Shown in pieces: positions 11,201 to 53,334 of a stretch of DNA of 64,000 bases. The first letter of the stretch is position 1. Every line of letters starts with the position of its first letter. Under the pieces are notes generated by a model. The model made no database searches and was not told the origin of the DNA. It saw nothing but the letters and a program-made list of their open reading frames with translations. Location of the stretch: NCBI RefSeq assembly GCF_055900595.2, contig NZ_CM148325.1; one strand, given 5' to 3'. A program made the translations under genes and the position numbers.

Positions 11201-11792
11201 GAGTTTGACGGAAAACGTCAACATTCTGGTGCTGGATACGCAATGCTATTCCAACACCGGTGGTCAGGCGTCGAAAGCGACACCGCTGGGTGCAGTAACT
11301 AAATTTGGCGAGCACGGCAAACGTAAAGCGCGTAAAGATCTTGGCGTCAGTATGATGATGTACGGTCATGTTTATGTGGCGCAAATTTCTCTCGGCGCGC
11401 AGCTCAACCAGACAGTGAAAGCGATTCAGGAAGCAGAAGCGTATCCGGGACCATCGCTGATCATCGCTTATAGCCCGTGTGAAGAGCATGGTTACGATCT
11501 GGCACTCAGTCACGACCAGATGCGCCAACTCACTGCCACCGGCTTCTGGCCGCTATATCGCTTCGATCCACGTCGAGCCGATGAAGGCAAACTGCCGCTG
11601 GCGCTGGATTCACGCCCGCCGTCAGAAGCACTGGAAGAAACGTTACTTCACGAGCAGCGTTTCCGTCGTCTGAATTCGCAGCAGCCAGAAGTGGCAGAAC
11701 AGTTATGGAAAGATGCCGCAGCTGATTTGCAAAAACGCTATGACTTCCTGGCACAAATGGCCGGAAAAGCGGAAAAAAGCAACACCGATTAA
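8268..11792 (+). CDS. pfo: Pyruvate:flavodoxin/ferredoxin oxidoreductase
   Basis: 1174-aa ORF; two 4Fe-4S ferredoxin CxxCxxCxxxCP motifs (CTQCNHCVAACP, CTGCNLCVEVCP) and TPP-binding region. Confidence 0.95.
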   Translation: MITIDGNGAVASVAFRTSEVIAIYPITPSSTMAEQADAWAGNGLKNVWGDTPRVVEMQSEAGAIATVHGALQTGALSTSFTSSQGLLLMIPTLYKLAGELTPFVLHVAARTVATHALSIFGDHSDVMAVRQTGCAMLCAANVQEAQDFALISHIATLKSRVPFIHFFDGFRTSHEINKIVPLADDTILELMPQAEIDAHRARALNPEHPVIRGTSANPDTYFQSREATNPWYNAVYDHVEQAMNDFAAATGRQYQPFEYYGHPQAERVIILMGSAIGTCEEVVDELLTRGEKVGVLKVRLYRPFSAKHLLQALPDSVRTVAVLDRTKEPGAQAEPLYLDVMTALAEAFNNGERETLPRVIGGRYGLSSKEFGPDCVLAVFAELNAAKPKARFTVGIYDDVTNLSLPLPENTLPNSAKLEALFYGLGSDGSVSATKNNIKIIGNSTPWYAQGYFVYDSKKAGGLTVSHLRVSEQPIRSAYLISQADFVGCHQLQFIDKYQMAERLKPGGIFLLNTPYSADEVWSRLPQEVQAVLNQKKARFYVINAAKIARECGLAARINTVMQMAFFHLTQILPGDSALAELQGAIAKSYSSKGQDLVERNWQALALARESVEEVPLQPVNPHSANRPPVVSDAAPDFVKTVTAAMLAGLGDALPVSALPPDGTWPMGTTRWEKRNIAEEIPIWKEELCTQCNHCVAACPHSAIRAKVVPPEAMENAPASLHSLDVKSRDMRGQKYVLQVAPEDCTGCNLCVEVCPAKDRQDPEIKAINMMSRLEHVEEEKINYDFFLNLPEIDRSKLERIDIRTSQLITPLFEYSGACSGCGETPYIKLLTQLYGDRMLIANATGCSSIYGGNLPSTPYTTDANGRGPAWANSLFEDNAEFGLGFRLTVDQHRVRVLRLLDQFADKIPAELLTALKSDATPEVRREQVAALRQQLNDVAEAHELLRDADALVEKSIWLIGGDGWAYDIGFGGLDHVLSLTENVNILVLDTQCYSNTGGQASKATPLGAVTKFGEHGKRKARKDLGVSMMMYGHVYVAQISLGAQLNQTVKAIQEAEAYPGPSLIIAYSPCEEHGYDLALSHDQMRQLTATGFWPLYRFDPRRADEGKLPLALDSRPPSEALEETLLHEQRFRRLNSQQPEVAEQLWKDAAADLQKRYDFLAQMAGKAEKSNTD

Positions 11793-11820
11793 ATGCTCTG
11801 GATAAGGATAATCCAATTCT

Positions 11821-11930
11821 AAAAAAAAGCCCGGACGACTGTTCGGGCTTGTCTTTTTATATGTTGGAAAATCAGTGGCAATGCAATGGCCCAACAGAAA
11901 ATAAAATCTGTGACAATAAAGGCATATAAC
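11821..11930 (-). ncRNA. micC: MicC sRNA (represses ompC)
   Basis: Reverse complement of 11821..11930 reads GTTATATGCCTTTATTGTCACAGATTTTATTTTCTGTTGGGCCATTGCATTGCCACTGATTTTCCAACATATAAAAAGACAAGCCCGAACAGTCGTCCGGGCTTTTTTTT, matching my recollection of MicC; ends in hairpin plus T8; lies between pfo and ompN. Confidence 0.85.
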
Positions 11931-12157
11931 CCGCGCAGAATAACGTATAGCAAATTAAAAGTATAATTTTTATTTTGTATGTATTATCTTCGATACATTC
12001 ACCAGGCTTATTATCATTTCAGAGGAATTATTTGATTAAGGTTTTACTTAAGGCGTAACAAATGATATTTATCGGCTAACTGAACTTCTCCTTTAGGATG
12101 TTTTCACTCCCCGAAATGGGGATAAAAGGCAAATAAAATAACTAAAGGATTTATTCA

Positions 12158-13291
12158 ATGAAAAGCAAAGTACTGGCACTTTTAATTCCTGCCCTGCTCG
12201 CCGCAGGTGCTGCACATGCAGCCGAAGTTTATAATAAAGACGGCAACAAATTTGATCTGTATGGCAAAGTTGATGGCCTGCATTATTTTTCTGATAATTC
12301 AGCGAAAGATGGCGACCAGAGCTATGCGCGTCTGGGTTTTAAAGGCGAAACCCAAATTAACGATCAACTTACTGGCTACGGTCAATGGGAATACAATATT
12401 CAGGCAAACAACACTGAATCTTCAAAAAACCAGTCATGGACCCGTCTGGCATTTGCCGGACTGAAATTTGCAGATTACGGTTCTTTCGATTACGGACGTA
12501 ATTATGGCGTAATGTACGACATCGAAGGCTGGACCGATATGCTGCCTGAATTTGGCGGTGACTCTTATACCAATGCAGACAACTTTATGACTGGTCGTGC
12601 CAATGGCGTCGCGACTTATCGTAACACTGATTTCTTCGGTCTGGTAAATGGTCTGAACTTCGCGGTGCAGTATCAAGGTAACAACGAAGGAGCCAGTAAT
12701 GGTCAGGAAGGCACCAACAACGGACGTGATGTTCGCCATGAAAACGGTGACGGCTGGGGTCTTTCCACAACATATGATTTAGGCATGGGCTTTAGCGCTG
12801 GTGCGGCATACACCTCTTCTGACCGCACCAATGACCAGGTTAACCATACTGCGGCTGGTGGTGATAAAGCAGACGCGTGGACTGCTGGGCTAAAATACGA
12901 TGCTAACAATATTTACCTGGCAACCATGTATTCAGAAACGCGTAATATGACCCCGTTTGGCGACAGCGATTATGCTGTTGCAAACAAAACCCAGAACTTT
13001 GAAGTCACTGCACAGTACCAGTTTGATTTTGGTCTGCGTCCGGCAGTCTCTTTCCTGATGTCTAAAGGCCGTGACCTGCACGCTGCCGGTGGTGCAGACA
13101 ACCCGGCAGGTGTTGATGATAAAGATCTGGTAAAATACGCCGATGTTGGCGCGACTTACTATTTCAACAAAAATATGTCCACCTACGTTGACTATAAAAT
13201 CAACCTGTTGGATGAAGATGACAGCTTCTACGCTGCCAACGGCATCTCTACCGATGATATTGTCGCTTTAGGTCTGGTTTATCAGTTCTAA
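12158..13291 (+). CDS. ompN: Outer membrane porin OmpN
   Basis: 377-aa ORF with signal peptide [21 protein letters not shown] and C-terminal ...LVYQF typical of general porins. Confidence 0.9.
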
Positions 13292-13299
13292 ATCCTCCT

Positions 13300-13323
13300 G
13301 CCCGCTGTTATGGCGGGCTTTTT
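13300..13323 (+). terminator. Intrinsic terminator after ompN
   Basis: Hairpin GCCCGC-tgttatg-GCGGGC followed by TTTTT. Confidence 0.6.
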
Positions 13324-13350
13324 CTGCTTATTCTTCCTCCTTTGATCTAA

Positions 13351-13866
<516 letters not shown>

Positions 13867-13873
13867 CACTAAC

Positions 13874-13898
13874 GCCCGCACATTGCTGCGGGCTTTTT
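13874..13898 (+). terminator. Intrinsic terminator after uspF
   Basis: Hairpin GCCCGCA-cattgc-TGCGGGC followed by TTTTT. Confidence 0.6.
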
Positions 13899-14041
13899 GA
13901 TTCATTTCGCAAATGTGCTGACATTTTCCCCTCTAATCCGTACCATACACGCCACAGTTTTTATATCAGATTTCTTATGCTGGGCGTTCCGGCATGACGC
14001 ATACTCTTCTGATGCCATATAACGAATTGAGTCGCTTTTAA

Positions 14042-14977
14042 ATGTCGCAAAATCAAGAAATTAGTAAGAAAGAACAATACAACCTGAACAAATTACAAAA
14101 ACGTCTGCGTCGTAACGTGGGCGAAGCCATTGCTGACTTCAATATGATTGAAGAAGGCGATCGCATCATGGTTTGCCTCTCCGGGGGTAAAGACAGCTAT
14201 ACCATGCTGGAGATTCTGCGCAATTTGCAGCAAAGCGCTCCAATCAATTTTTCGCTGGTGGCTGTTAACCTCGATCAAAAGCAACCGGGCTTCCCGGAAC
14301 ACGTTCTGCCCGAGTATCTTGAAAAGCTGGGCATTGAGTACAAGATTGTGGAAGAGAACACTTACGGTATCGTGAAAGAGAAGATTCCGGAGGGCAAAAC
14401 CACTTGCTCACTGTGTTCTCGTCTTCGTCGCGGAATTCTTTACCGTACCGCAACGGAACTGGGAGCGACGAAGATCGCGCTGGGTCACCATCGTGACGAT
14501 ATCCTGCAAACGCTGTTCTTAAATATGTTCTATGGCGGCAAGATGAAAGGTATGCCACCGAAACTGATGAGCGATGATGGCAAACATATTGTGATTCGTC
14601 CGCTGGCCTACTGTCGCGAGAAAGATATTCAACGCTTTGCCGATGCAAAAGCGTTCCCGATTATTCCGTGCAACCTGTGCGGTTCACAGCCTAACCTGCA
14701 ACGTCAGGTGATTGCTGACATGTTGCGTGACTGGGATAAACGTTATCCGGGGCGTATCGAGACGATGTTCAGCGCGATGCAGAATGTGGTGCCGTCGCAT
14801 CTGTGCGATACCAACCTGTTCGATTTCAAAGGCATTACCCACGGTTCTGAAGTGGTTAACGGGGGTGATCTGGCGTTTGATCGCGAAGAGATCCCTCTAC
14901 AACCGGCGGGTTGGCAGCCTGAAGAAGATGAAAATCAGTTGGATGAGTTACGACTGAATGTGGTTGAAGTGAAATAA
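14042..14977 (+). CDS. ttcA: tRNA 2-thiocytidine(32) synthetase TtcA
   Basis: 311-aa ORF with PP-loop SGGKDS and conserved Cys motifs ([16 protein letters not shown]). Confidence 0.9.
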
Positions 14978-15060
14978 CCCGGATAGCGCCCGATGCGCAA
15001 GCTTATCGGGCTACTCTTATGGAGGCCGGATAAGACGCGGCCAGCGTCGCATCCGGCAAT
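14978..15060. repeat. REP (repetitive extragenic palindrome) cluster
   Basis: GCCGGATAAGACGCGGCCAGCGTCGCATCCGGC and a second imperfect copy between convergent ttcA and dbpA. Confidence 0.55.
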
Positions 15061-15105
15061 CCCGAAGAAGATGTTTACTCTTGCACCCTGCGATTCAACA
15101 TTTCA

Positions 15106-16479
15106 TTATTTTAATAACCGCACCCGGCACGTTTTTCCTTTAATCTTCCCGCCCTGTAACTGTTTCCATGCTTTATGAGCAACAGCCTGACGCACCGCAA
15201 CATAGACATGCGCCGGATGCACGGCGATTTTGCCAATATCTGCGCCATCAAGCCCGATATCTCCTGTCAGCGCACCTAATACATCACCCGGGCGCATTTT
15301 GGCTTTTTTCCCGCCATCGATACACAACGTTGCCATTTCTGCTTCCAGCGGCACAATGGAACTATTAACTGGCGGCGTTTGCCAGTTAAGTTTTATCTGC
15401 AACATGTCAGAAATGATATTGGCCCGCTGTGCTTCTTCCGGGGCACAGAAACTGATCGCCAGACCGCTATTTCCTGCACGCGCTGTACGACCGATGCGAT
15501 GTACATGAACTTCAGGATCCCACGCCAGTTCAAAGTTCACTACCAGCTCAAGCGATTTAATATCAAGACCACGCGCAGCAACATCCGTCGCGACCAGCAC
15601 ACGAGCGCTACCGTTAGCAAAACGTACCAGGGTCTGATCGCGGTCACGTTGCTCCAGATCGCCATGTAACGACAATGCACTTTGCCCTATGTCATTCAGC
15701 GCGTCGCAGACAGCCTGACAATCTTTTTTGGTATTGCAAAACACCACGCAAGAGGATGGCTGATGCAAACTTAATAACCGTTGCAACAGCGGAATTTTGC
15801 CTTTGCTGGATGTCTCATAAAATTGTTGTTCAATGGGAGGCAGAGCATCTGTTGAGTCAATTTCAATCGCCAATGGATCGCGTTGAACTCGTCCGCTGAT
15901 TGCGGTGATGGCTTCCGGCCAGGTTGCCGAAAACAGAAGCGTCTGTCGAGATGCTGGCGCAAAACGGATAACATCATCAATGGCATCGCTAAATCCCATA
16001 TCCAGCATGCGATCGGCTTCATCCATCACCAGCATATTCAACGCATCCAGTGATACCGTGCCTTTTTGCAGATGGTCCAGCAAACGACCTGGGGTTGCCA
16101 CGATAATATGCGGCGCATGTTGCAACGAATCACGCTGCATACCGAACGGTTGACCACCGCACAAAGTCAAAATTTTGGTATTTGGCAGAAAACGCGCCAG
16201 CCGACGCAATTCACCTGCCACCTGATCCGCCAGTTCACGCGTAGGACACAGCACTAAAGCCTGGGTCTGAAATAGCGACGCATCAATTTTCTGTAGCAGC
16301 CCGAGGCCAAAAGCCGCCGTTTTGCCGCTGCCGGTTTTCGCCTGCACGCGAACATCTTTTCCGGCAAGGATCGCCGGAAGCGCGGCGGCCTGCACCGGCG
16401 TCATAGTTAAATAACCCAACTCATTAAGGTTCGTGAGTTGGGCGGGAGGCAAAACATTCAGGGTAGAAAAAGCGGTCAC
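15106..16479 (-). CDS. dbpA: ATP-dependent RNA helicase DbpA (DEAD-box)
   Basis: 457-aa ORF with Walker A GSGKT, DEAD box (VMDEADRM), SAT and HRIGRTAR motifs. Confidence 0.9.
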   Translation of the reverse strand: MTAFSTLNVLPPAQLTNLNELGYLTMTPVQAAALPAILAGKDVRVQAKTGSGKTAAFGLGLLQKIDASLFQTQALVLCPTRELADQVAGELRRLARFLPNTKILTLCGGQPFGMQRDSLQHAPHIIVATPGRLLDHLQKGTVSLDALNMLVMDEADRMLDMGFSDAIDDVIRFAPASRQTLLFSATWPEAITAISGRVQRDPLAIEIDSTDALPPIEQQFYETSSKGKIPLLQRLLSLHQPSSCVVFCNTKKDCQAVCDALNDIGQSALSLHGDLEQRDRDQTLVRFANGSARVLVATDVAARGLDIKSLELVVNFELAWDPEVHVHRIGRTARAGNSGLAISFCAPEEAQRANIISDMLQIKLNWQTPPVNSSIVPLEAEMATLCIDGGKKAKMRPGDVLGALTGDIGLDGADIGKIAVHPAHVYVAVRQAVAHKAWKQLQGGKIKGKTCRVRLLK

Positions 16480-16509
16480 AATCTGTTCTCGTGGTCATCG
16501 ACGCAAAAA

Positions 16510-16683
16510 TTAGCAAGCGCGTATCCTCGCAGATCTACGCTCACGATGCGACAATTTAATCGGTTCTTCATCGGGTGGTGGGTCAGGCATGGGTTGCGGG
16601 CGAGGGATTGGATCGGGCACTGGAACAGGATCGCCAGGAATCGGTTCAGGGACAGGAATTTGCAAATAAATGAGTGTCGTCAT
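16510..16683 (-). CDS. Candidate small proline-rich protein (57 aa), unannotated
   Basis: Own translation: MTTLIYLQIPVPEPIPGDPVPVPDPIPRPQPMPDPPPDEEPIKLSHRERRSARIRAC; ATG at 16683..16681 preceded by GGAGGG with 4-nt spacer; stop TAA 16512..16510; below the 60-aa track cutoff. Confidence 0.35.
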   Translation of the reverse strand: MTTLIYLQIPVPEPIPGDPVPVPDPIPRPQPMPDPPPDEEPIKLSHRERRSARIRAC

Positions 16684-16740
16684 ATTTCCCTCCGGTCATT
16701 GGGTGGACTCTTAAAGGGTAGACGCTGATATATAACAGGC

Positions 16741-16862
16741 AAAAAAAAGCCGACTCATCAAAGTCGGCGTCGTACGAATCAATTGTGCTATGCAGTAATT
16801 CAAAAAAGGAAGTAAGACAATATGGAGCGCAACGCCCATCGCTTGACGTTGCATTCACCTGC
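16741..16862 (-). ncRNA. fnrS: FnrS sRNA (FNR-activated)
   Basis: Reverse complement begins GCAGGTGAATGCAACGTCAAGCGATGGGCGTTGCGCTCCATATTGTCTTACTTCC and ends in hairpin GCCGACTTTGATGAGTCGGC plus T8, matching my recollection of FnrS; lies between zntB and dbpA. Confidence 0.85.
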
Positions 16863-16897
16863 GAGAGAGATATTGCCCTGAATGGGTAGAGAGTTTA

Positions 16898-16911
16898 TTG
16901 ACTTCGCTCAA
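16898..16911 (-). promoter_or_regulatory. Putative FNR box upstream of fnrS
   Basis: Minus strand reads TTGAG-cgaa-GTCAA (consensus TTGAT-N4-ATCAA), about 40 nt upstream of the inferred fnrS 5' end. Confidence 0.55.
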
Positions 16912-16957
16912 ACTTTGCGGCGTTTTTGTATACAGATAGTAGGGAAAATTGCTGTTG

Positions 16958-17962
<1,005 letters not shown>

Positions 17963-26464: not shown

Positions 26465-27217
26465 ATGATCCCGGAAAAGCGAATTATACGGCGCATTCAG
26501 TCTGGCGGTTGTGCTATCCATTGCCAGGATTGCAGCATCAGCCAGCTTTGCATCCCGTTCACACTCAACGAACATGAGCTTGATCAGCTTGATAATATCA
26601 TTGAGCGAAAGAAGCCTATTCAGAAAGGCCAGACGCTGTTTAAGGCTGGTGATGAACTTAAATCGCTTTATGCCATCCGCTCCGGTACGATTAAAAGTTA
26701 TACCATCACTGAGCAAGGCGACGAGCAAATCACTGGTTTCCATTTAGCAGGCGACCTGGTGGGATTTGATGCCATCGGCAGTGGTCATCACCCAAGCTTC
26801 GCGCAGGCGCTGGAAACCTCGATGGTATGTGAAATCCCGTTCGAAACGCTGGACGATTTGTCCGGTAAAATGCCGAATCTGCGTCAGCAGATGATGCGTC
26901 TGATGAGCGGTGAAATCAAAGGCGATCAGGACATGATCCTGCTGTTGTCGAAGAAAAATGCCGAGGAGCGTCTGGCTGCATTCATCTACAACCTGTCCCG
27001 TCGTTTTGCCCAACGCGGCTTCTCCCCTCGTGAATTCCGCCTGACGATGACTCGTGGCGATATCGGTAACTATCTGGGCCTGACGGTAGAAACCATCAGC
27101 CGTCTGCTGGGTCGCTTCCAGAAAAGCGGTATGCTGGCAGTCAAAGGTAAATACATCACCATCGAAAATAACGATGCGCTGGCCCAGCTTGCTGGTCATA
27201 CGCGTAACGTTGCCTGA
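26465..27217 (+). CDS. fnr: Anaerobic transcription regulator FNR
   Basis: Track ORF 26408..27217; start moved to [23 protein letters not shown] (250 aa); N-terminal Cys cluster and C-terminal HTH. Confidence 0.95.
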
Positions 27218-28626: not shown

Positions 28627-28869
28627 GATGTAATCCTTGTGCAGACAAATTTTTTGTTACCTCTATGCAACAATACCATGACATTTCACTCTTGTCTGCT
28701 CTGAAAACCTCACCTCTTAGCCGGATTTACAATCAATGCATTGATTTGTTAGCTAATGTTGCTACTTACTTCCCTGACTATTGATGATCTGAATGAATTG
28801 TCGCGGTAAAATATCCCCGCCAGGGGTTTCCGGCATGACGACAATTATCTGGAGGAGCCTGATAAAACA

Positions 28870-31560: not shown

Positions 31561-31742
31561 AAGTTTCCCTCAAACCTGCGTTAATAATCATGCGTAATTA
31601 TTTGTTTCGCCTTAAAGAAATGCAAACAACTTCCGGCAAAAAAGTGATACAAGATCGATAACATAGCGTTGAAGAAAAGGATTTGATAATCCGCAAAATT
31701 TGCACAACACTGCCTGTAATACTTCCTGAACCAGAGACGATT

Positions 31743-34080: not shown

Positions 34081-34178
34081 GATCTACCAGTCCCACTATT
34101 TTCCAGAGTTCCTGCCACTATTCCCCCTAACCGTTGTGCATTAAGATTGCTCTTTGCCATTATTGGCCCAGCGGAGTG

Positions 34179-36230
34179 ATGACTATTATGGATGATAAAC
34201 AAATTACGGTCTGGCTTAAACACAATTGCTGTTCAACGGACATTCCTGCCATTGCCGAGGCACTAACGAACCATGCAGAATGGCTTTTAGAGCTAGCGCC
34301 AGATCCTATTGAACAAGGTAGTTCATGTTTACCGCCGACAGCTGCAGCCGGTATTTTTCTTGGCGCAGCGGCGATGGTTCACTGCGGCGAGGCTAGTGGT
34401 GCAGAAACCTGGCTCGAAGCAGCCATTACTGATTACCATTTCCTTAATCCAAATGGATATAGTTCATGGAGAGGCAGTACGCCTGTTTTTACAGCAATAT
34501 CGCGTTACCCGGCATTAAGAATGGTGTTATTTAACGCCGCTTGCGCAATGGAAGACTGGAATAAAGCATCCGCTGTTCTTGAATCGCTTTTCCATGCCAG
34601 CGATGTCCCGGAAGATAACCCTGTCGCCCCAAATTTTACCCCTTATGCGCTGAAAGCGTTTATCGCGGATTACCACCCGTTAGGGCCTGCTTATTATGAT
34701 GAAACCTGGTTGCTGGCAAAACAAGCGTGGTTAATTAATGCGGGCGTTCTGGATGAGCGAACCTGCAATACCTGGAAGCAATATACCCGCCACTTGCGCC
34801 ATTTGATCCACAATGCACAGTTTGCCGATGCGCTCTCTTTTGTACGCAGTAAAATAGAACCGTTAAATCATATCCATACCTACTCAGACTTTTATCTGTA
34901 TGCGATTGGTTTATTTTCTTATACTAGTCAGCTAAATGAAGCGCTGACCTGGATAAAACAGTTAATCCACAACAATGATGGTCATTTCTGTGATCTTTTC
35001 GTTTCAACTGGCAAAGAGCGCCGAATAAAGCCTGAACTTAGTACCTTGCTGAATAATCTCTTGCACAGCGCAGAGTTTCAGGCGTTGCAGGATAAATATC
35101 TCACCGTCGGACATGATGTTGTGCATTCTGGTCCCTTCATGTCAGTTTATGAAAAGGTTCTTGGCGGAAAGTCCCGAAAGCGCTGCGCGATTAGTCGAAA
35201 ATTAATCTCGCCCGGCGAAGCGGTTTATGAATATCGTCATTTGGATAGTGTGGAATATATTGCAGCGAAAGCGGCCTTTCAGACATCTGAGCTAAATAAT
35301 ATCGCCCACCGGCATCATAATGATAGTTATCAGTGGCATGAATTTGCCGCCCAATGGCCTCGTCGGGGTTCACTTTCTCACCCAGATATTGCCCGTTATT
35401 TGTTTGAGCGCCAGGAAGGAAAATGCTTTGATGCCGCAGAGTTTATACAACTGATTGCGGAACCGTTTGTCTTTCCGATGCGTTTCATATGGGTTGCCGG
35501 GTTGTCCTTTGAATTACATCAGTATCCGGATGCCTATTTCGTAAATGACAATATGGCGGGTGAATTTGTTAATCTCTGCTGGATGGCTATGAAATGCGGA
35601 CATGCTGGCGACATTTTCAAACAACTGGCCCACGAGCCGCATGACGTTGCTGACCCTATTTACGCCATGCTCGCCACGTTTGACCGCGCTGATTGCCGTA
35701 GCGCGGCCGCCGCGCACTTTGGACAACCGGAACTACCGGAAATAATGGCACTGGCTTTCAGTTCGAGGTTATCGCTCGACAGCGTCCTTACCATCGCTGA
35801 GTTTGGTAAAAATCAGCCGCGATTTTCACATGCGCTAGCAACGGCCCTCCTGCGTTACAACCTGCACATCTACTCAAACTATATGCCGCAGGTTAATTGG
35901 TACCTTCAGGGGCTGGAACACTATGCTTTGGCAAAAGGCGGTCAACTTTTAAATTTCTTTGTGCATATTCCAGAACAAATTCCCGTTCTGGCGACCATGC
36001 TGGAACATGGCGTATTAGTGCGTGGGATCGGTGAAGGTGCCTATGATGGTTATGATAATTCAGCAAATTCATTTCATCATGCCGTCGTGATGCACTGCCT
36101 CGCGCACGCGCCGGAAAAAGTCCGCTACTGGATGGAAACACCCTGGATTCAGAACTATTTAGTGAATGCGCCGCTGCGTCAAACGGCGCGCCATGTGGAA
36201 GCCTGGCATAAAAAGTTTGGCATCAAATGA
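34179..36230 (+). CDS. Hypothetical protein (~683 aa), function unknown; not present between tpx and tyrR in K-12 as I recall
   Basis: Track ORF 34134..36230 (opens with TTG); likely start ATG 34179 or 34188 downstream of GGAG (34174..34177). No signal peptide, TM segment or Walker A motif seen; Trp/Tyr/His-rich, apparently helical. Sits between tpx terminator and a GC hairpin (36239..36259) shared with the tyrR 3' end. Confidence 0.6.
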   Translation: MTIMDDKQITVWLKHNCCSTDIPAIAEALTNHAEWLLELAPDPIEQGSSCLPPTAAAGIFLGAAAMVHCGEASGAETWLEAAITDYHFLNPNGYSSWRGSTPVFTAISRYPALRMVLFNAACAMEDWNKASAVLESLFHASDVPEDNPVAPNFTPYALKAFIADYHPLGPAYYDETWLLAKQAWLINAGVLDERTCNTWKQYTRHLRHLIHNAQFADALSFVRSKIEPLNHIHTYSDFYLYAIGLFSYTSQLNEALTWIKQLIHNNDGHFCDLFVSTGKERRIKPELSTLLNNLLHSAEFQALQDKYLTVGHDVVHSGPFMSVYEKVLGGKSRKRCAISRKLISPGEAVYEYRHLDSVEYIAAKAAFQTSELNNIAHRHHNDSYQWHEFAAQWPRRGSLSHPDIARYLFERQEGKCFDAAEFIQLIAEPFVFPMRFIWVAGLSFELHQYPDAYFVNDNMAGEFVNLCWMAMKCGHAGDIFKQLAHEPHDVADPIYAMLATFDRADCRSAAAAHFGQPELPEIMALAFSSRLSLDSVLTIAEFGKNQPRFSHALATALLRYNLHIYSNYMPQVNWYLQGLEHYALAKGGQLLNFFVHIPEQIPVLATMLEHGVLVRGIGEGAYDGYDNSANSFHHAVVMHCLAHAPEKVRYWMETPWIQNYLVNAPLRQTARHVEAWHKKFGIK

Positions 36231-36267: not shown

Positions 36268-37809
36268 TCACTCTTCGCTTTTCTTCTGGTTTAAGCCATA
36301 TTCCCGCAACTTATTGGCAATCGCGGTATGCGAAACACCGAGACGTTTTGCCAGTTTGCGTGTGCTGGGATAATTGCGATAAAGCTGGGTTAATACCGAG
36401 CGTTCAAAACGGCTGGTGATTTCGTCCAGCGAACCTTCCATCGCATCTTCGCCCACGGCTACCGTTGCGGCGTCATAATCCGGTAACAAAATATCCTGTG
36501 GACGCAGCTCATAGCCGTCCAGTTGTGTCAGTGCGCGATAGATAGCGTTCTTTAACTGCCGCACATTTCCCGGCCACGCATAACGCGTAAGTACAGTATT
36601 CAGGTCAGCGGCCAGTTTCGGACGCGGCACGCCCTGCTCGTCGGCAAAGCGGGCGACGAACAGCTCGGTTAACGGCATGATGTCCTGCGGACAATCACGT
36701 AGCGGCGGCAGATTGAGCGTCAACACGTTCAGACGATAATAGAGATCTTCACGGAACACGCCTTTTTGCACCAGTTCGACCAAATTCTTCTGCGTAGCGC
36801 AAATAACCCTTACATCGACATGCACTTCATGATCTTCACCAACTCGACGGAAAGTACCATCATTAAGGAAACGCAGTAATTTCGCCTGCATCCGTGGTGA
36901 CATCTCACCTATTTCATCCAGCAGCACCGAACCACCGTTCGCCTGCTCAAAGAATCCTTTCTTCCCTTCCGGAGCATGACCAAAGAGCTCACTCTCGACC
37001 GCATCTTCCGGTATAGACGCACAGTTCAGCGCCAGGTAAGGTTTGCTCGCTCTGGGGCTTGCCTGATGGCAGGCGTAGGCAAAGAGATCTTTACCTGTAC
37101 CGGTGTCACCCGTAATCAGCAACGGCGCGCTTAGCATCGCCAGTTTCTGCGCCTGTTCGACAACATGCTTCATTTTCGGGCTGACGGCGACAATTTGACT
37201 GAAGGCACTGACGTCCTGTGCAGCGACATTCTGCAACTGACGGCCCATACGAATCGTCGAGCGCAACATCACCACCGCACCGGTCAGAACGTGTTGATCA
37301 TTTTCATCCTGAAGATAAACAGGCGTAATCTCCATCAGGAAATTCTGCCCATTAATAACGACATGCTCGTTATGCGAGTCTTGCGGTTCGCTTTCCAGCC
37401 AGCGTAAAAAATTAAAGCCGTTAATTAATTGCGCGGCGGTATGGTTGCGCAGGCGATCCAATTTTTGCCCAAAAAGCTGACAGCTCGCCGGGTTCGCCAT
37501 ATCCACTTTGCTTTTCATATCAACAGAAAGCACAGGTTCAGGCAACGCCTCCAGTAACGCGCTCAACGCCAGATGCTCACGTTCGGAAGGCATCCACGGG
37601 ACAGTACGCACATCGGTAACACCTGCAATACGGCGTATTTCGGCCATCAGACTGCTGAAGCTCTCAAACTCCAGTTCAGCAAAATTGAGGTAGATTCGCC
37701 CAATGGGGTCAATCTCAATACCGCGTAAATCAATGCCTCTTAGCACGAGTAGATCGAGTAATTCGCGGGTCAGACCGAGTCGGTCTTCACAAAAGACTTC
37801 CAGACGCAT
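36268..37809 (-). CDS. tyrR: Transcriptional regulator TyrR (sigma54-type AAA+ domain, HTH)
   Basis: Track ORF 36268..37836; start moved to MRLEVFCEDRLGLTREL (513 aa); Walker A GDTGTGKD. Confidence 0.95.
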   Translation of the reverse strand: MRLEVFCEDRLGLTRELLDLLVLRGIDLRGIEIDPIGRIYLNFAELEFESFSSLMAEIRRIAGVTDVRTVPWMPSEREHLALSALLEALPEPVLSVDMKSKVDMANPASCQLFGQKLDRLRNHTAAQLINGFNFLRWLESEPQDSHNEHVVINGQNFLMEITPVYLQDENDQHVLTGAVVMLRSTIRMGRQLQNVAAQDVSAFSQIVAVSPKMKHVVEQAQKLAMLSAPLLITGDTGTGKDLFAYACHQASPRASKPYLALNCASIPEDAVESELFGHAPEGKKGFFEQANGGSVLLDEIGEMSPRMQAKLLRFLNDGTFRRVGEDHEVHVDVRVICATQKNLVELVQKGVFREDLYYRLNVLTLNLPPLRDCPQDIMPLTELFVARFADEQGVPRPKLAADLNTVLTRYAWPGNVRQLKNAIYRALTQLDGYELRPQDILLPDYDAATVAVGEDAMEGSLDEITSRFERSVLTQLYRNYPSTRKLAKRLGVSHTAIANKLREYGLNQKKSEE

Positions 37810-37879
37810 GGGAACCTTCACCTGAAAAAAGAACAATTAATATGATGATATGACACTATTTGGATAGCAGGAAGGTTTC

Positions 37880-37897
37880 TGTCAACAATAATTGACA
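37880..37897. promoter_or_regulatory. Putative TyrR box upstream of tyrR (autoregulation)
   Basis: Palindrome TGTCAA-caataa-TTGACA resembling TGTAAA-N6-TTTACA, with the symmetric G and C 14 bp apart; 71 to 88 nt upstream of the tyrR ATG. Confidence 0.45.
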
Positions 37898-37956
37898 CAA
37901 AGACGGAAAAACGGGCACTTCGGCGTAAAGATATCCGGTCAGCACCCGATATTGCA

Positions 37957-39018
37957 TTATTTTTCGGCAGGAGTTTTGCCTTTTTGCAGCGTCTCTTTCA
38001 CCTGACCAATAAGCTGGCGACGGAAATCCCCGAGGCGAGGTTTGTCATCGTCAATCCACGGCAGCGGGCGGCAAAGCTCCATAGCTTTAATCCCCAGTCG
38101 TGCCGTCAGAAGTCCAGCACCAATCCCCTGAGCTGCGCGGGTAGACAAACGCGCAGCGAGATCTTGCGACATCCAGTCCATCCCCACTTCGCGCACCAGT
38201 TCGCTGGCTCCGGCAAAAGCGATATTCAGCAATACCAGCTTAAACAGGCGCAAACGGCTGTAATATCCCAGTTCAATGCCATACAACGTGGCGATGCGAT
38301 TAATCAAACGCAGATTGCGCCAGGCGATAAATGCCATATCCACCAGCGCCAGTGGGCTAACGGCAATCATTAACGTTGATTCCGCCGCTGAGCGACTGAT
38401 TTCGCGCCGCGCCTGAGCATCTAAAACCGGCTGGACCAGATGAGCATACAGGCTGACCACTTCACGATCGTTCTGCGTTTCATGGATTGACGCATACCAG
38501 CGTTGCAGCGCCGGATGGGACTGATCAATACCCGCCTGCTGCGCCAGTTTTTCACAAAATGCGCGGCCTTTGCCCGTGCCGTGGCTGTGCAATAAATCAC
38601 GCGCTTCGTCGCGTTCATGGGCGCGCTGTCGCAAGCGCCATAAGCGCCGCCACTCTGTTACCACAGAACCGACGCCAGCGCCGATAATCAATGCCCCAGC
38701 GGCACATCCACCCAGCGCTACCCAATCCTGAGTTTGCCAGGCATTCATCGTCCACTGCACGCCCTGTCCGACAACGCTTGCACCAAACAGAGCCAACCCG
38801 CCCATCACCATTTTGCGCCACAGGCTGCGTTTCGGACGTAACGCTGCGTCCATCACCGCTTCAACTTGCCCCTCTTCTTCCTGCGCTTCGTCGAGCGTGG
38901 CCGGGGCAAAATTTTGCGCCTGATTTTCGTCAAAGGTCTGCTGCGCCCTGAATTTTGGATTCTGATCGACCTCCAGCGGACCGTCGAAATCAATACGTGG
39001 TTTTAACGGTTCGGTCAT
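37957..39018 (-). CDS. ycjF: YcjF, inner-membrane protein (UPF0283)
   Basis: 353-aa ORF with central TM helices; translationally coupled to ycjX (4-nt overlap). Confidence 0.85.
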
Positions 39019-40412
39019 CGCAATTTATCTCCTATTAAAAATTCCAGCGCAGCATCAAGACGAATATGCGGCAGCGGTTTGTCGACATCCATCACCTGCG
39101 GACGAAACGCCTCAAACTGGAAGCCTTGCTTATCCCAGAACGCCTGACCAGGCAAACGTGCGGGAACTTCGCCAGGATAAACAGTGAGCGGTGCGCCATC
39201 ACTGAGTCGATTACCGCGCAGCGCCGGGATTTTCTCACCGTTAACATCAATAATGCCGCTGGTGGTCGCCTGAACTGACGCCAGCCCCAGGCAGTCCATA
39301 CTGATCCCTTCGAACGCCGCATTTTGCCAGGCATCCTGAATCAGTTGTTGCAGTAATGAAACCATATTGGCGTGCTGATCGATGGTCACATGATCCGCTT
39401 TAGTGGCAGCAAACAATAGCTTATCGATAACCGGCGAAAACAAGCGCCGGAACAAGGTACGCTGCCCGTAGTGGAAGCTTTGCATCAGCTGCGTCAGCGC
39501 CAGACGCATATCATTGAATGCTTGTGGTCCACTGTTGAGAGGTTGCAGGCAATCCACCAGCACAATCTGCCGATCAAAGCGCAGAAAATGATTTTTATAG
39601 AACCCCTTCACCACTTTCTCGCAGTAATAATTAAATCGTTCGCGCAGCATTCCGGCATTGGTGTGCTTGTCGGCCTGTGCAAGTTTTGATTCGCCCCAGG
39701 CATCGACATCCGGCCACGGGAAGAATTGCAACGCGGGCGCACCTGCCATATACCCCGGCAAGACAAAACGCCCAGGCTGAATAAAGTGCAGCCCCTGCTG
39801 TTTACAGTGGTGGAGATAATCGGTCCATGCGGCAGCAATGTCTGCAAGACGGTTTTCGTCGGCAGGTGCTAGTGGGTCCAGCCCTTCGCACATCATTCGC
39901 CATTTTGCCGACCATTCGCCGCGCTGACCATTGAGTAAGCCCGTCATCTGGCGCGACCAGCTTAAATAGTCCTGCGCCAACATCGGCAAGTCGAGTAACC
40001 ATTCGCCGGGATAATCCACTATCTCCAGATACAACGTGGAAGTGTCTTTGAAGTGACGCAACAGCGAATCGTTCGATTTATAGCGTAGCGCCAGGCGAAT
40101 CTCACTGACGCCGCGTGTTGGGGTCGGCCAGGCGGGAGGATCGCCATATAACTGCGCCAGCCCTTCATCGTAGGTGAAGCGTGGAATGCCAAAGTCACGC
40201 TGGGGAATGCGTTTTACGCCCAGCAGGCGCTCTTCACGCACCGCACTTAATAGCGGCAAGCGTGCTCCGGCATGAATATTGAGCAACTGATTGACCATCG
40301 CAGTGATAAACGCGGTTTTGCCGCTGCGGCTAAGTCCGGTTACAGCGAGGCGCAGATGTCTGTCGACACCCCGATTCACCAGCGCATTAAGTTCATTTTT
40401 AAGTCGCTTCAT
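39015..40412 (-). CDS. ycjX: YcjX, P-loop NTPase
   Basis: Track ORF 39015..40499; start moved to [12 protein letters not shown] (465 aa); Walker A GLSRSGKT. Confidence 0.85.
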
Positions 40413-40556
40413 TGCTGTCCTGTGGACCAGAAAAAAATCATTCGTAAGGATATGAATGTGGGGGCCATGCCCTTGATTATCAACTGCCCGTGTTGTCATC
40501 TTGAGGCGAACTCCATAAGATGTGCAGCATTCACGTTCGGACGGAGTTCCTGACCT

Positions 40557-41555
40557 ATGTCCCCTACTATTTATGATATTGCCAGGGTTGCCGGCGTATC
40601 AAAATCCACCGTATCACGCGTGCTGAATAAGCAAACCAATATCTCCCCGGAAGCGCGCGAAAAAGTGTTACGGGCCATTGAAGAATTACAGTATCAGCCA
40701 AATAAACTGGCCCGCGCGCTGACCTCTTCGGGCTTTGATGCCATTATGGTGATTTCTACCCGCTCGACCAAAACTACGGCGGGTAACCCGTTTTTCTCCG
40801 AAGTTTTGCATGCCATTACCGCCAAAGCGGAAGATGAGGGTTTCGACGTGATATTGCAGACGTCGCACAACCCAGCTGAAGACTTACAAAAATGTGAAAG
40901 CAAAATTAAGCAGAAAATGATTAAAGGCATTATTATGCTAAGTTCGCCAGCAGATGAGTCTTTTTTCGCCCAACTCGATAAATACGATATTCCGGTGGTA
41001 GTAATTGGCAAAGTTGAAGGTGAATATGCCCATGTTTATTCTGTCGATACCGATAATTTTGGCGACAGTATTGCGCTGACCGATGCATTAATTGAAAGTG
41101 GACATAAAAATATTGCCTGCCTACATGCTCCGCTTGATGTCCATGTTTCGGTTGACCGCGTTAATGGTTATAAGCAAAGTCTGGAAGATCATAATATTGC
41201 AGTGCGCAATGAGTGGATCGTTGACGGCGGTTATACCCATGAGACAGCACTGCAAGCCGCGCGGGAATTATTAAGCCAGTCACCGTTGCCTGAGGCAGTG
41301 TTTGCTACTGACAGCCTGAAATTAATGAGCATTTATCGTGCGGCGGCAGAGAAAAACATTGCTATTCCGCAGCAGTTAGCGGTGGTGGGTTATAGTAATG
41401 AAACGCTGTCGTTTATATTAACGCCTGCACCGGGCGGCATCGATGTTCCGACGCAGGAGTTAGGTCAACAAAGCTGCGAGTTATTATTCCGCTTAATTGC
41501 CGGAAAACCGTCACCACAAAATATTACCGTTGCCACGCATATGTCGTTGAAATAA
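40557..41555 (+). CDS. ycjW: LacI-family regulator YcjW
   Basis: 332-aa ORF with N-terminal HTH ([21 protein letters not shown]). Confidence 0.9.
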
Positions 41556-41569
41556 ATGCCAGCTACGTT

Positions 41570-41653
41570 GCCTGAATGCCGGATGCGATGCTGGCGCATC
41601 TTATCCGGCCTACATTTATAAACCGGATAAAGTACTCGCGCCGCATCCGGCAA
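41570..41653. repeat. REP/BIME element (two REP units)
   Basis: GCCGGATGCGATGCTGGCGCATCTTATCCGGCCTAC and CCGGATAAAGTACTCGCGCCGCATCCGGC between ycjW and ompG. Confidence 0.6.
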
Positions 41654-41665
41654 TTTAGCACATTA

Positions 41666-42571
41666 TCAGAACGCGTAATTCACACCGACACCTGCATAAT
41701 GGAATTTATCGCTGTCGCCTTCATCGTGATCCTGCCACTCAAACGCGTATTCCAGCGAAACGGAAAGACCATTCTGGAAATCATAACCGTAAAACAAACC
41801 AAGACGGTTAAAATCATGGCCTTCACGTTCGATATCATCCTGCCAGTCCCAGTTACTCCAGCGATCCAACCCAATGCGCGTATACGGTGTTACCGAGTGA
41901 TTGCCGAGCGTCAGCGGTAAATAGGCGCGAATTTCTTGCGTGGAGAATTCACCGTTATTGCGGCTGTCGTCCATATTGAAGCCGCGCTCGAGATAATAGT
42001 TCACTCGCAAGGCAACCGTTTCGTTGAAGGTATATTGCAGACCCGTTTCCGTTTCGACACGGGTATCAGCATAACCGGTTGTATTCAGATCGTTGGCAAA
42101 TTTATACATCGACAGCCATCCGTTGAAACGTAAATCGTCAGTCAGTTTCACATCCCAGTCTGGCGCGATTTTCCAGCGCTGCATATTTGCCGTGTCTTTA
42201 CCCGGTTCATCAACATAGTGATAACCATAGTTACGGAAACCACCGGTCAGGCCGAAACTGAAATCATCGCTTTCGAGAAACTGATAATGCACTTCGAGTT
42301 CCGGGCGATCAAACCAGTTTCCACGTTTACCCGCGCTATAATCTACCGGCCCTTCCTGGTAATAAGCCAGCGATATTCTCCACGGCCCATTGGCAGCATT
42401 AAAATAGACGGAAGGCTCCGCCAGCCCGTCCATATCTTCGCCATAACCCTCGACGTTTTCTATTTCGTACATCGCGCCGATATTAAAGTGCCAGTCGTTT
42501 TTTTCCTCAGCCTGTGCGCAGGCCATTCCCGCACACATCACCAGTGCGGTACAGGGTAATAACTTTTTCAT
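41666..42571 (-). CDS. ompG: Outer membrane porin OmpG
   Basis: 301-aa ORF with signal peptide and C-terminal aromatic residue (…VNYAF). Confidence 0.9.
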   Translation of the reverse strand: MKKLLPCTALVMCAGMACAQAEEKNDWHFNIGAMYEIENVEGYGEDMDGLAEPSVYFNAANGPWRISLAYYQEGPVDYSAGKRGNWFDRPELEVHYQFLESDDFSFGLTGGFRNYGYHYVDEPGKDTANMQRWKIAPDWDVKLTDDLRFNGWLSMYKFANDLNTTGYADTRVETETGLQYTFNETVALRVNYYLERGFNMDDSRNNGEFSTQEIRAYLPLTLGNHSVTPYTRIGLDRWSNWDWQDDIEREGHDFNRLGLFYGYDFQNGLSVSLEYAFEWQDHDEGDSDKFHYAGVGVNYAF

Positions 42572-42616
42572 TATTGTTCCTTGTATTATCCTGGGGGAAT
42601 GCCTTCCCCCCTGTAT

Positions 42617-43699
42617 TTAGCGAATTGCTATTTCCGTTTCTGCATCAAAGAAATGACATTTGGTCATATCAAAATGAATAGTGATATTTTCTCCTGCATG
42701 ATAATCATTTAACGCACCAGCACGGACCACTAACTCGTGCCCCCCAACCGTGGTGTAGAGCATAAATTCCGCACCGGTTAATTCTGCCACGCTAATTTTG
42801 GCGGAAATGTTATTTTCCTCTTGCGCATCCGGATGAATATCTTCCGGGCGTATTCCCATCACGATGGGCTTATGCAAGCTTTCCTGCGTTTTCAGAACCG
42901 CTAATTTATCTTCGGGAATGGTTAATTTAAGCGTTTCCGTAACGAATTTATCGCCATCGATCGTGCCGCGAATAAAATTCATTGCTGGTGACCCAATAAA
43001 GCCGGCAACAAACATATTCGCCGGTTGGTTATAGACCGTTTTCGGCGCACCGACCTGCTGAACAATCCCATCCTTCATAATGACAATCCGCGTCGCCATG
43101 GTCATCGCTTCGGTCTGATCGTGGGTCACGTAGATCATGGTGGTGTTCAGTTTCTGATGCAGCTTGCTGATTTCCGCGCGCATTTGTACGCGCAGCTTGG
43201 CATCCAGGTTAGAGAGCGGTTCATCCATTAAAAACACGCCCGCTTCGCGCACAATCGCCCGTCCAAGCGCCACACGCTGGCGTTGCCCGCCGGAAAGCGC
43301 ACCCGGCTTGCGTTTCAGGTACTCACGCAGGCCAAGGATTTGCGCCGCCCAGTTAACCCGCTCATCTATCACCTCTTTGGCGATTTTTTGCATCTTCAGG
43401 CCAAACGCCATGTTGTCGTAGACCGTCATATGCGGATACAGCGCGTAGTTCTGGAACACCATCGCAATATTGCGCGCTTTGGCCGGAACGTCGTTCATTC
43501 GTTTGCCGTCGATCAACAGATCGCCGCCGCTAATCTCCTCAAGCCCGGCAATCATACGCAGCGTCGTCGATTTACCACAGCCCGACGGGCCGACAAATAC
43601 AATGAACTCTTTATCGGCAATTTCCAGGTTGAAGTCCTTCACCACATGCACCTGGTTATCGTAGATTTTTTGAATATGTTGTAACGAAAGCTGTGCCAT
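42617..43699 (-). CDS. ycjV: ABC transporter ATP-binding protein YcjV (MalK-like), full length
   Basis: 360-aa ORF with Walker A GPSGCGKST, signature LSGGQ and Walker B FLMDEPLS; intact here, whereas I recall a truncated pseudogene in K-12. Confidence 0.85.
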   Translation of the reverse strand: MAQLSLQHIQKIYDNQVHVVKDFNLEIADKEFIVFVGPSGCGKSTTLRMIAGLEEISGGDLLIDGKRMNDVPAKARNIAMVFQNYALYPHMTVYDNMAFGLKMQKIAKEVIDERVNWAAQILGLREYLKRKPGALSGGQRQRVALGRAIVREAGVFLMDEPLSNLDAKLRVQMRAEISKLHQKLNTTMIYVTHDQTEAMTMATRIVIMKDGIVQQVGAPKTVYNQPANMFVAGFIGSPAMNFIRGTIDGDKFVTETLKLTIPEDKLAVLKTQESLHKPIVMGIRPEDIHPDAQEENNISAKISVAELTGAEFMLYTTVGGHELVVRAGALNDYHAGENITIHFDMTKCHFFDAETEIAIR

Positions 43700-43712
43700 G
43701 TTGATTCCTTTG

Positions 43713-44372
43713 CTATACGTTTTGCCAGAAGGCCGATAACCGCGGCCAGGTCAGAGATTCCGTTGAGGGCAGCAACAGTTGCGCCCCGGTTAAGCTCGTG
43801 CCGATCCCCACCGAGCGCATACCGCTGGCGTTAATGGCGTCAATACCCGCCTGCGCATCTTCAATGCCAATGCAGGCCTGTGGAGGCACGCCCAGCCCTG
43901 CACAGGCGGCGAGAAAGATTTCCGGGTCCGGTTTCGAGTGTTTAAGTTGGGAAGCGTCCGCGCAGAAGGTGAAAAACTCGCGCAGCTCCAGCGCCGCTAA
44001 AATTGTTGGGGCATTCAGGGAGACGGAGGCCAGCCCTACCGGGATGCCTTGCGCCCGAAGATCTGCCAGCAAAGGCCGAATTCCCGGCAGAACAGCGTTA
44101 ACCGTCAGTTCGCGCAGTGAGTGGACGTAGAGCAGATTTTTGCGATACGCCAGTTGCGCCCGCTCTTGCACGTTAAAGTCGCCCTCTTTGCCCCCGTGTT
44201 GCAGAATGCGTCGCAGGGACTCATCGCGGCTGATCCCTTTTAACGTCTCGTTAAATTGCACATCGATGCCGATGCCGATTTCGGCAGCAATCTGCTGCCA
44301 TGCCTGGAAGTGCAGATGTGCGGTGTCGGTGATCACGCCATCCAGATCGAAAATTACCCCTTGTAGTTTCAT
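43713..44372 (-). CDS. ycjU: Beta-phosphoglucomutase
   Basis: 219-aa ORF with HAD motif I ([12 protein letters not shown]). Confidence 0.9.
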
Positions 44373-44388
44373 TCATCCTCTTGATGCG

Positions 44389-44402
44389 TGGTAGCGGTCC
44401 CA
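44389..44402. promoter_or_regulatory. Putative LacI-family (YcjW) operator, copy 2
   Basis: Minus strand TGGGACCGCTACCA, identical to the 14-mer upstream of ycjM; inside the ycjT 3' end, 17 to 30 nt upstream of the ycjU ATG. Confidence 0.45.
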
Positions 44403-46267
44403 TTGAAGGGCAAAATAAAATCACCCAAACAGAAAACAGACTCTTCAGTCACGGAAATAAGCTGACCGTTCAACCGCAGTGAAACGGGCGCAGAAGTTCG
44501 AATCGCAATACGCTGCGCGTCGAGAGTGACCTGTAATTCGCAGCCCTGCCAGAACAGAGGGAAAGACAACTGTTGCCACTGCTCAGGTAACGCCGGATTG
44601 AGAAGTAATTCGCCGTCGCGCACGCTGACTCCGGCAAAACCCTGAATCGCGCCCAGCCAGATAGCGCCAGTTGCGGCAGCGTGGATACCGTCATCACAGC
44701 TATGCGGATCAGCACCGAGATCGATTTCACTCCCCTCGCGCCAGAACGGGTAACTCTGCGCAAGCAAGCCACAACGCGCGGCAACAATGCCGTGGATCGC
44801 TTTACTCAATGACGAGTCGTGAATGGTGCGCGGTTCATAAAATTGCAGATTGGCGAGACAAGAGGCCGCTGAAAATTGTTCCGGTAGCATGTAATTGAGC
44901 ATCACTACATCGGCCTGCTTGAGGATCTGCATCTCGTTCACTTCTGCGCGTGAATAATCCAGCAGAATGGTTTGCTTCCCGGCCGCCGCTTTGTATTTCG
45001 CCAGATCTATCGCCGGTTTCGCCATAAACGAATCATCCTGCGGCAAAACGCCGTCGGGCTGAATTTCTGGCATCCACAGCTCTTTGAGGAACATGTCGGC
45101 ACGATGAATAAACGCGTCGTCGCTACAGCAAAACTGGCGAGCAATATTCAGCGCCTGTTGGACGTTGTAGCAGGCCATATAACTGGTGTATGCGTTATTA
45201 TTAACGTGTTCGGTATATTCGTCTGGCCCAATAACATCATGAATTTCCAGGCGGTCGTTAACCCTTACCGCACGGCTAATCCAGAACTTTGCGGTCTCCA
45301 GCAGTAGCGCCATGCCTTCGTGAGCGATGAAGCTTTCATCTCCCGTTACCTGCCAGTATTGAATAACCGCCCAGGCGATATCGGCAACCAGATGATGTTC
45401 TGCCTGCGCTGAGGCCACTTTTTGCCGCAGCCCGGTACGAATGTTAATGGCGGCAAATTCCGGCGTTTCTTCTTCGCCGCTACGTGCGCTCTCCCACGGA
45501 AACAGCGCGCCCTGCCAGCCATTGCGTCGCGCTTTCTCCTGCGCCCCTGGTAAGTTGTGCCAGCGATAGCGCAGCAAACTCCGGGCAATCGTCGGTTCGC
45601 TAAACAGATGGAACGGCAGCATGAACACTTCCGTATCCCAGAAAACATGGCCTTTGTAGCCTTCCCCGGTTAAGGCTTTTGCCGCAATGCTGCTACGCTC
45701 GTCGTGGGCGGGCGTCATAATACGCAAATGATAAAGCGCATAGTCTAACGCCCGCTGATCGTGCGTATCGCAACTCTTTACCGTGATACGACGTTTCTGC
45801 CACCATTGCTGCCAGTTTTCTGTCGATGCTGCAAGAAGTTGGTCATAACTCTGTTGTGTAGACATTTCGAGCTGGCGAAGCGACCCACTGCCCCACTCGT
45901 CTAAAGCGGCTTGTCGGTCGTCCCGCCAGTCAATCCACACCCGCTTTTGCAGGGTCAGTGTTTCACCTGTGCGAAGTTGCGTGCTGGTATGTTGCAGCAA
46001 ACGGCGCTCTTTTGCGGTATAGCACTGCTGAACGTCACCATCCGCCTGACAGTGACAACTGATGGCCACATCACTGCGCCCATCCTGGGTGGTGTAGATC
46101 CCCTGCATCAAATGCTGACCAAACACCCGCACCTGGGTTTCGTCAAGATGCTGGCGACCGTGGTTGGTTTGCGTGGCGTTAATGCCTGTTGAGATCAGCA
46201 CTGATGCCTCGGCGTCCAGCGGGGTAATACTGATTTCCAGCGCGATCAACGGCAGTTGATCTGTCGA

Positions 46268-46978
46268 AATAAATATCCTCCGGCATAGCCGGAGGTTTTT
46301 CAAATGCGCCTGTAAGGCTCTGTTACCAGCCGCGCCCTAACAGGCGCATACGATCTGACATTTGCATTCAACTTCGTTACTTACGGCCCGTAAACGGGCT
46401 GCCCGGATATGGAATCGATAACTGCTCCCCCATTTTATCCTCTTCAAGCTGGTGCTTTATGTAGTCCTGTATCTTCGCCGTGTTCTTACCCACCGTATCG
46501 ACATAGTACCCTCGGCACCAGAACTCCCTGTTTCTGTATTTGAATTTCAAATCCCCAAACTGCTCGTAAAGCATCAGACTGCTTTTCCCTTTCAGATATC
46601 CCATAAAGCCGGATACGCTCATTTTGGGTGGGATTTCCACAAGCATATGGATATGATCTGCGCAGCACTCTGCTTCCAGAATCCGTACGCTTTTCCACTC
46701 ACACAGCTTTCTCAAAATACTGCCTATCGCCCTACGCTTCTCTCCGTAAAACGCCAGTCTTCGGTATTTCGGCGCAAAAACTATGTGATATTTACAGTTC
46801 CAGCGGGTGTGCGCTAAGCTCTTTTCGTCCCCCATTGGGACCCCCTTTTGATTTCTTGTTTGACACTTGCAGTTGCCAGACCGCAAGGTGTTTTAACAAA
46901 TCAAAAGGGGTTTTAATAACTGGCTCAAAGCTGAAAGCTTTCCGGAACCCCCAGCCTAGCTGGGGGTTTTCTGTGCAC
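46268..46978 (-). mobile_element. IS200-type insertion sequence (IS200/IS605 family), about 711 bp
   Basis: Boundaries inferred from where ycjT homology stops and resumes (within a few nt). Upstream of tnpA: palindrome CCCCCAGC-ctag-GCTGGGGG (46943..46961) and a stem-loop overlapping the tnpA RBS. Downstream end: hairpin CCTCCGGC-ata-GCCGGAGG (46277..46295). Confidence 0.85.
46377..46835 (-). CDS. tnpA: IS200 transposase TnpA (HUH Y1)
   Basis: Track ORF 46377..46886; start moved to MGDEKSLAHTRWNCKYHIVFAPKYRR (152 aa); HUH motif (ADHIHML) and C-terminal Tyr region (RGYYVDTVG). Confidence 0.9.
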   Translation of the reverse strand: MGDEKSLAHTRWNCKYHIVFAPKYRRLAFYGEKRRAIGSILRKLCEWKSVRILEAECCADHIHMLVEIPPKMSVSGFMGYLKGKSSLMLYEQFGDLKFKYRNREFWCRGYYVDTVGKNTAKIQDYIKHQLEEDKMGEQLSIPYPGSPFTGRK

Positions 46979-48399: not shown

Positions 48400-48408
48400 A
48401 AAGACCTC

Positions 48409-49197: not shown

Positions 49198-49213
49198 TTT
49201 TCCGTCCTTAGAA

Positions 49214-50267: not shown

Positions 50268-50297
50268 GTAAAACTCCTTGTCAAGAAACTGGCCGCT

Positions 50298-53321: not shown

Positions 53322-53334
53322 GAGATGTTCCTTT

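Follow-up and report, generated by a model that had tools for sequence, protein, structure and literature searches.

Two genes read in the same direction, uspF and ttcA, lie side by side in the left part of the window (the whole stretch of DNA that was analysed, 64,000 nucleotides). The gap between the uspF stop codon TGA (13864..13866) and the ttcA start codon ATG (14042..14044) is exactly 175 bp, 13867..14041, as the initial annotation had given it. The genes around this gap and the elements within it are the following:

8268..11792, ydbK/nifJ
11813..11933, minus strand, MicC
12158..13291, ompN
13432..13866, plus strand, uspF, encoding universal stress protein F, 144 aa (open reading frame; NF011581 equivalog; annotated as uspF in matching genomes)
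13867..14041, no strand assigned, native uspF-ttcA spacer of 175 bp, free of phage sequence (comparison with K-12 uspF-ttcC, Rfam, Rac blastn)
13874..13893, plus strand, terminator-like hairpin followed by TTTTT, likely the uspF terminator (consensus scan, pattern match only)
13918..13946, plus strand, sigma-70-like promoter match CTGACA-17-TACCAT, candidate native ttcA promoter (consensus scan)
14042..14977, plus strand, ttcA, encoding tRNA 2-thiocytidine(32) synthetase, 311 aa, host-type (TtcA') allele (NF007972)
15106..16479, minus strand, dbpA
16745..16862, minus strand, FnrS
16958..17941, minus strand, zntB

UspF scored 303 bits against the NF011581 equivalog (cut-off 166) and TtcA, which is full length at 311 aa, scored 513.2 bits against the NCBIfam equivalog NF007972, for which the curated cut-off is 272. 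Only two mechanical open reading frames (41 and 51 aa) occur in the spacer. Likewise, a scan of 11700..17200 against Rfam at E<=1 found no family in the spacer, the matches in this range being the known small RNAs MicC and FnrS and a sub-threshold REP-like match 3' of ttcA. The hairpin close to the uspF end has a stem of seven pairs, six of them G-C, with the T-run after it. We infer that ttcA would be driven by a promoter inside the 175-bp spacer. The sigma-70-like match at 13918..13946 agrees with the consensus at 9 of 12 positions, a frequency not above chance, and because such matches are expected by chance this sole promoter-like match in the spacer was dropped as evidence of a ttcA promoter.

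Comparison with the Rac junctions of K-12

In K-12 MG1655 the cryptic prophage Rac is annotated at 1411899..1434958 (23,060 bp), between ttcA and ttcC/uspF, with the gene order ttcA, intR, xisR ... pinR, ynaE, ynaM, ttcC, uspF, ompN, MicC, ydbK. The initial annotation had placed a prophage of roughly 23 kb between ttcA and the uspF side in K-12, and this is where it is found. In that genome intR and ttcA share a strand, with ttcA 51 bp downstream, and ttcC is a pseudogene of 51 nt. The placement of Rac between ttcA and ttcC was described by Liu et al. (2015, Sci Rep 5:16074; PMC4632033), who also reported, from experiment, that excision of Rac alters four N-terminal residues of TtcA as a result of the imperfect match between attL and attR. 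Strains without a rac-like prophage have the post-excision form of the protein, TtcA', which the same authors called the ancient copy and which, when overproduced, handles carbenicillin stress less well than the lysogen form (PMC4632033). XisR (YdaQ) is the excisionase of Rac, and the prophage still excises at a measurable frequency in culture, regenerating attB and TtcA' exactly (PMC4632033). A review from 2019 gives the same integration picture (PMC6379469). The activities of integrase and excisionase, and the difference in phenotype between TtcA and TtcA', are taken here from this literature.

The sequence relationships and the absence of phage DNA were observed directly. The earlier claim that the interval contains no integrase or phage genes was upheld by the list of open reading frames, in which no integrase appears between uspF and ttcA, by blastn with the Rac interior, which found no match anywhere in the 64 kb, and by collinearity of the window with K-12 on either side of the uspF-ttcA junction. 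Remnant phage sequence was also sought within the 175-bp interval itself, and none was found, the spacer being that of K-12 uspF-ttcC except for one T in a T-run. Alignment with the K-12 attL and attR junctions, as had been proposed, located the attachment core: an exact-substring search and a three-way alignment gave 26 bp, AAGAAAGAACAATACAACCTGAACAA, as the longest substring common to the window and both K-12 junctions. To the left of this core the window follows the uspF-ttcC side of K-12, and to the right it is identical to K-12 ttcA at the intR-side junction at 100 of 100 bases, the remaining flanks of the core at the K-12 junctions being phage DNA. The elements around the core are:

14042..14065, plus strand, ttcA codons 1-8 (MSQNQEIS), the segment swapped for a phage copy on Rac-type integration (same as K-12 ttcC)
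14051..14063, plus strand, IHF consensus match WATCAANNNNTTA adjoining the core (pattern search)
14066..14091, plus strand, 26-bp attB core AAGAAAGAACAATACAACCTGAACAA (present in K-12 Rac attL and attR too; megablast similarity to lysogens breaks at 14091)
14077..14091, plus strand, 15-bp sub-core ATACAACCTGAACAA, probable strand-exchange region (comparison of the SA53 junctions)

The core begins 24 nt into ttcA and covers codons 9-17. The initial annotation had placed an unoccupied attachment region in the spacer; an empty attB is what the comparison supports, but its core lies outside the 175 bp, at 14066..14091 within the ttcA coding sequence. On these comparisons the uspF-ttcA junction is almost certainly the unoccupied attB of Rac or Rac-like lambdoid prophages, situated inside a host-type ttcA 5' end. 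The window agrees with the K-12 Rac att sites and TtcA' of PMC4632033 in the locus, the 26-bp core, the N-terminus and the flanking genes uspF and dbpA. It has the attB that arises when K-12 loses Rac, but in a natural strain and not in a K-12 strain from which Rac was deleted. An empty site with the TtcA' allele is already known and is an ordinary arrangement.

The IHF consensus has three matches in the window by pattern search, compared with 1.2 expected, and the one at 14051..14063 is the ttcC-type version. A study from 2021 reported cell-cycle-dependent IHF binding beside attL near the ttcA start codon, and none at the similar ttcC (attR) site (PMC8407004).

The TtcA N-terminus and the point of exchange

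The N-terminus that the initial annotation quoted agrees with the translation, and its suggestion that this is the uninterrupted allele proved correct. Residues 1-17 of TtcA in the window are identical to the translation of the K-12 ttcC stub (17 codons, then a stop) and to the published TtcA', with S2, Q3, E6 and S8 in place of the corresponding residues of MQENQQITKK (PMC4632033). This latter sequence is the start of TtcA in K-12, where it is encoded by a phage-borne 5' copy. Comparison of the protein of a lysogen (K-12) with that of the window showed 305 identical residues of 311, with four of the six differences at residues 2, 3, 6 and 8, where the window has the host-type amino acids. The other two, V98I and C290G in the window relative to K-12, are ordinary strain variation. 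In K-12, MSQNQEIS is contiguous with host DNA on the uspF side and MQENQQIT is contiguous with intR, which together with PMC4632033 identifies the former as the original 5' end of the host gene and the latter as the phage copy.

A second prophage allows the point of exchange to be narrowed. The prophage in the record 'Escherichia phage Rac-SA53' (KU052037.1), which includes host DNA on either side, occupies the same ttcA site as Rac. What the record annotates as a 26-bp 'attP' and 'attB' are its two prophage-host junctions, in the same place as the window core. The intR-side junction reads ATGCAAGAAAATCAAAAGAATACGAAGAAAGAGATATACAACCTGAACAA (MQENQKNTKKEIYNLNK), and at the uspF side the host sequence is retained, just as the window has it. 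Both junctions contain the same 15-bp ATACAACCTGAACAA and they are identical only over this stretch, differing on both sides of it, which places the exchange in that integration within 14077..14091. This segment is the probable region in which strands are exchanged at the site. Rac-like phages differ in the copy of the ttcA 5' end that they carry and write different TtcA N-termini (MQENQQIT by K-12 Rac, MQENQKNT by SA53, which gives MQENQKNTKKEIYNLNK). The window has none of these copies, its codons 1-8 being different from both.

An intact Rac attP was sought in free phage genomes with a reconstructed attP of 826 bp, and none of 50,697 phage records covered at least 80% of it. The record 'Salmonella phage SPF_0923' is a prophage end with a host flank (ompN, uspF). 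In the reconstructed Rac attP (K-12 extract 3950..4000 and 26700..26800) each arm carries repeats of a TTTGCCCC motif, which may be arm-type binding sites for the integrase. Two copies lie on the stretch from intR to the ttcA copy, and the opposite arm has three or four at a depth of about 130-180 bp. No copy occurs near the uspF-ttcA junction, and the four matches across the window are at chance level.

States of the site and other differences from K-12

The uninterrupted junction was found in 2488 of 5426 complete E. coli genomes (46%), the same count being obtained with two queries spanning uspF-ttcA, one of 1101 nt and one of 116 nt. About 54% of complete genomes have a phage-type ttcA 5' end, so that the locus has two common states, the empty site being one of them. 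Among the matches listed, similarity from the uspF side ends in K-12-type genomes at 14091, the end of the core, whilst some genomes, such as Z1323CEC0019, have a Rac-like element with intR and xisR directly upstream of ttcA. Others among the matches listed have degraded remnants. In MS8345, for example, uspF and ttcA are about 2.3 kb apart, the intervening DNA contains an integrase fragment and a metal ABC transporter gene with a frameshift, and spacer similarity ends at 13938. The window fits none of these patterns.

Some Rac-like elements at the ttcA site carry sitABC-type manganese/iron ABC transporter genes just inside their uspF-side end. These genes are intact in ON032529.1 (2903..5196, the 'Salmonella phage SPF_0923' record) and frameshifted in the MS8345 remnant (6556..8742). 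A further arrangement was seen in K-12 AG100 (NZ_LN832404.1, 1438076..1438455), where the match to the 116-nt query is split in two; the pieces fall within 380 bp and each carries the annotation TtcA. Such a layout is odd for a K-12 strain and may be a deletion or a peculiarity of the assembly.

The empty site could have been occupied in the past and vacated by precise excision mediated by XisR and IntR. This history is possible but on the unlikely side. It would agree with the finding that excision of Rac yields exactly an attB and a TtcA' of the window type (PMC4632033), and with the frequent occupation of the site in the species, as seen in the share of complete genomes with a phage-type 5' end. 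However, scarless excision makes never-occupied and cured sites identical in sequence, and nothing in the sequence points to a former lysogen; such a past is a variant history of the unoccupied attB, in which the identity of the feature stays the same. Far less probable, to the point of being a minor concern, is an assembly artefact or a mixed culture with the prophage excised in some cells. Measurable excision of Rac in culture (PMC4632033) means that reads spanning attB could come from a lysogen, but the 26-bp repeat is too short for normal assembly to collapse a 23-kb element, the host-type N-terminus is in frame with ttcA in the form present in the 2488 complete genomes, and orphan phage sequence was not found in the window. 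A scar of a Rac-like prophage that has been mostly deleted has a negligible probability, since although such remnants exist in genomes like MS8345, the window has host-type codons 1-8, zero phage-derived bases and no phage arm motif TTTGCCCC near the junction, and an MS8345-type remnant is ruled out by alignments in which the 175-bp spacer is complete and of host type.

Elsewhere in the window several other differences from K-12 were observed. K-12 lacks a 2.2-kb segment that in the window lies between tpx and tyrR and holds an open reading frame of 698 aa (34134..36230, plus strand). Searches of NCBIfam, Pfam, PADLOC and PHROGs gave no match to the product of this reading frame, and the best match among PDB sequences is non-significant (E 0.69). 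It is present in 32 of 5426 complete E. coli genomes, annotated as 'hypothetical protein', and its GC content is 45-50%, compared with 51-54% in the flanks. An IS200-family element of about 707 bp (46273..46979; tnpA on the minus strand, NF033573, E 2e-42) interrupts ycjT (kojibiose phosphorylase) at a point corresponding to K-12 1378247-1378252. Only one of 5426 complete genomes matches this junction at 80% coverage or more, in two pieces and at 95% identity, so that on this search the position would be shared with at most one other complete genome. The 698-aa reading frame is an orphan accessory gene, and both it and the IS200 in ycjT are more unusual than the empty att site.

Segments of K-12 are also missing from the window. 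K-12 1390724..1393139 (2.4 kb with part of ymjC, and ymjD, ycjY and pgrR) is missing at window ~31618..31647; in K-12 an imperfect direct repeat of about 30 nt (AAATGCAAACAACTTCC..AAAAAAGTGA) stands at either end of this module, and one copy of it is left in the window. The IS5F between ynaI and ynaJ in K-12 is absent (~28749..28752), as are about 122 bp of K-12 DNA that separate puuR from puuC (~62590). At the left edge, a gene for a large BigA-like autotransporter adhesin (N-terminal 738 aa, 1..2214, minus strand) runs off the window and adjoins ydbL. At the position of this gene (window 1..2850) K-12 has feaR, feaB, tynA and the paa cluster instead, and the sequence has only about 66% identity over 400 nt to the K-12 ydbA pseudogene. 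The ycj-psp-puu stretch (36270..62591) is 93.9-94.7% identical to K-12, compared with 96.8-97.5% for segments in 2851-34027, which suggests a divergent or recombined segment.

Consequences of integration at ttcA

Under the reading as an unoccupied attB, the attP of Rac-like phages carries the same core, preceded by its own ttcA start codon and first eight codons, and recombination of attP with attB by the tyrosine integrase IntR leaves ttcA full-length. In the integrated state ttcA gains a phage-written N-terminus (MQENQQIT in K-12, with four residues changed) and upstream DNA from the phage side, and the native upstream region together with the 17-codon stub (ttcC) ends up about 23 kb away, beside uspF. 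In the window no such integration has taken place, or it has been exactly reversed by XisR/IntR excision. A similar arrangement is known for e14 in icd, the classic example, which like Rac inserts in a host gene, brings a near-identical replacement segment that keeps the gene intact with few substitutions, and leaves a pseudogene stub (PMC6379469). However, the part replaced by e14 is the 3' end of icd. With Rac-type phages it is the 5' end of ttcA, and the exchange takes in the start codon and all the DNA upstream of it, so that the native ttcA promoter region is displaced too. The empty and integrated states probably differ in how ttcA transcription is controlled, since integration separates the gene from its native upstream region and leaves intR 51 bp upstream. 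Displacement of the ttcA promoter by Rac integration is not treated in PMC4632033, PMC6379469 or PMC8407004.

For annotation, the strain can be recorded as one without a prophage at ttcA and with TtcA in the host-type (TtcA') form, and 14066..14091 as a putative vacant site at which Rac-like phages could insert. The census of empty and phage-type genomes and the narrowing to 15 bp are small refinements of published knowledge. A more tentative proposal, to which we give somewhat less than even weight, is that the recombination site would be confined to the final 15 bp of the core (ATACAACCTGAACAA), with everything upstream, including the start codon and promoter, being rewritten by the integrating phage. 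If this is true, phages would give TtcA differing N-termini (MQENQQIT, MQENQKNT and others) as well as differing transcriptional control, and the window would show how the locus is organised natively, with ttcA transcribed from a promoter of its own within the 175-bp spacer. In this way, lysogeny at ttcA would switch not only the sequence of a tRNA-thiolation enzyme but also its regulation.
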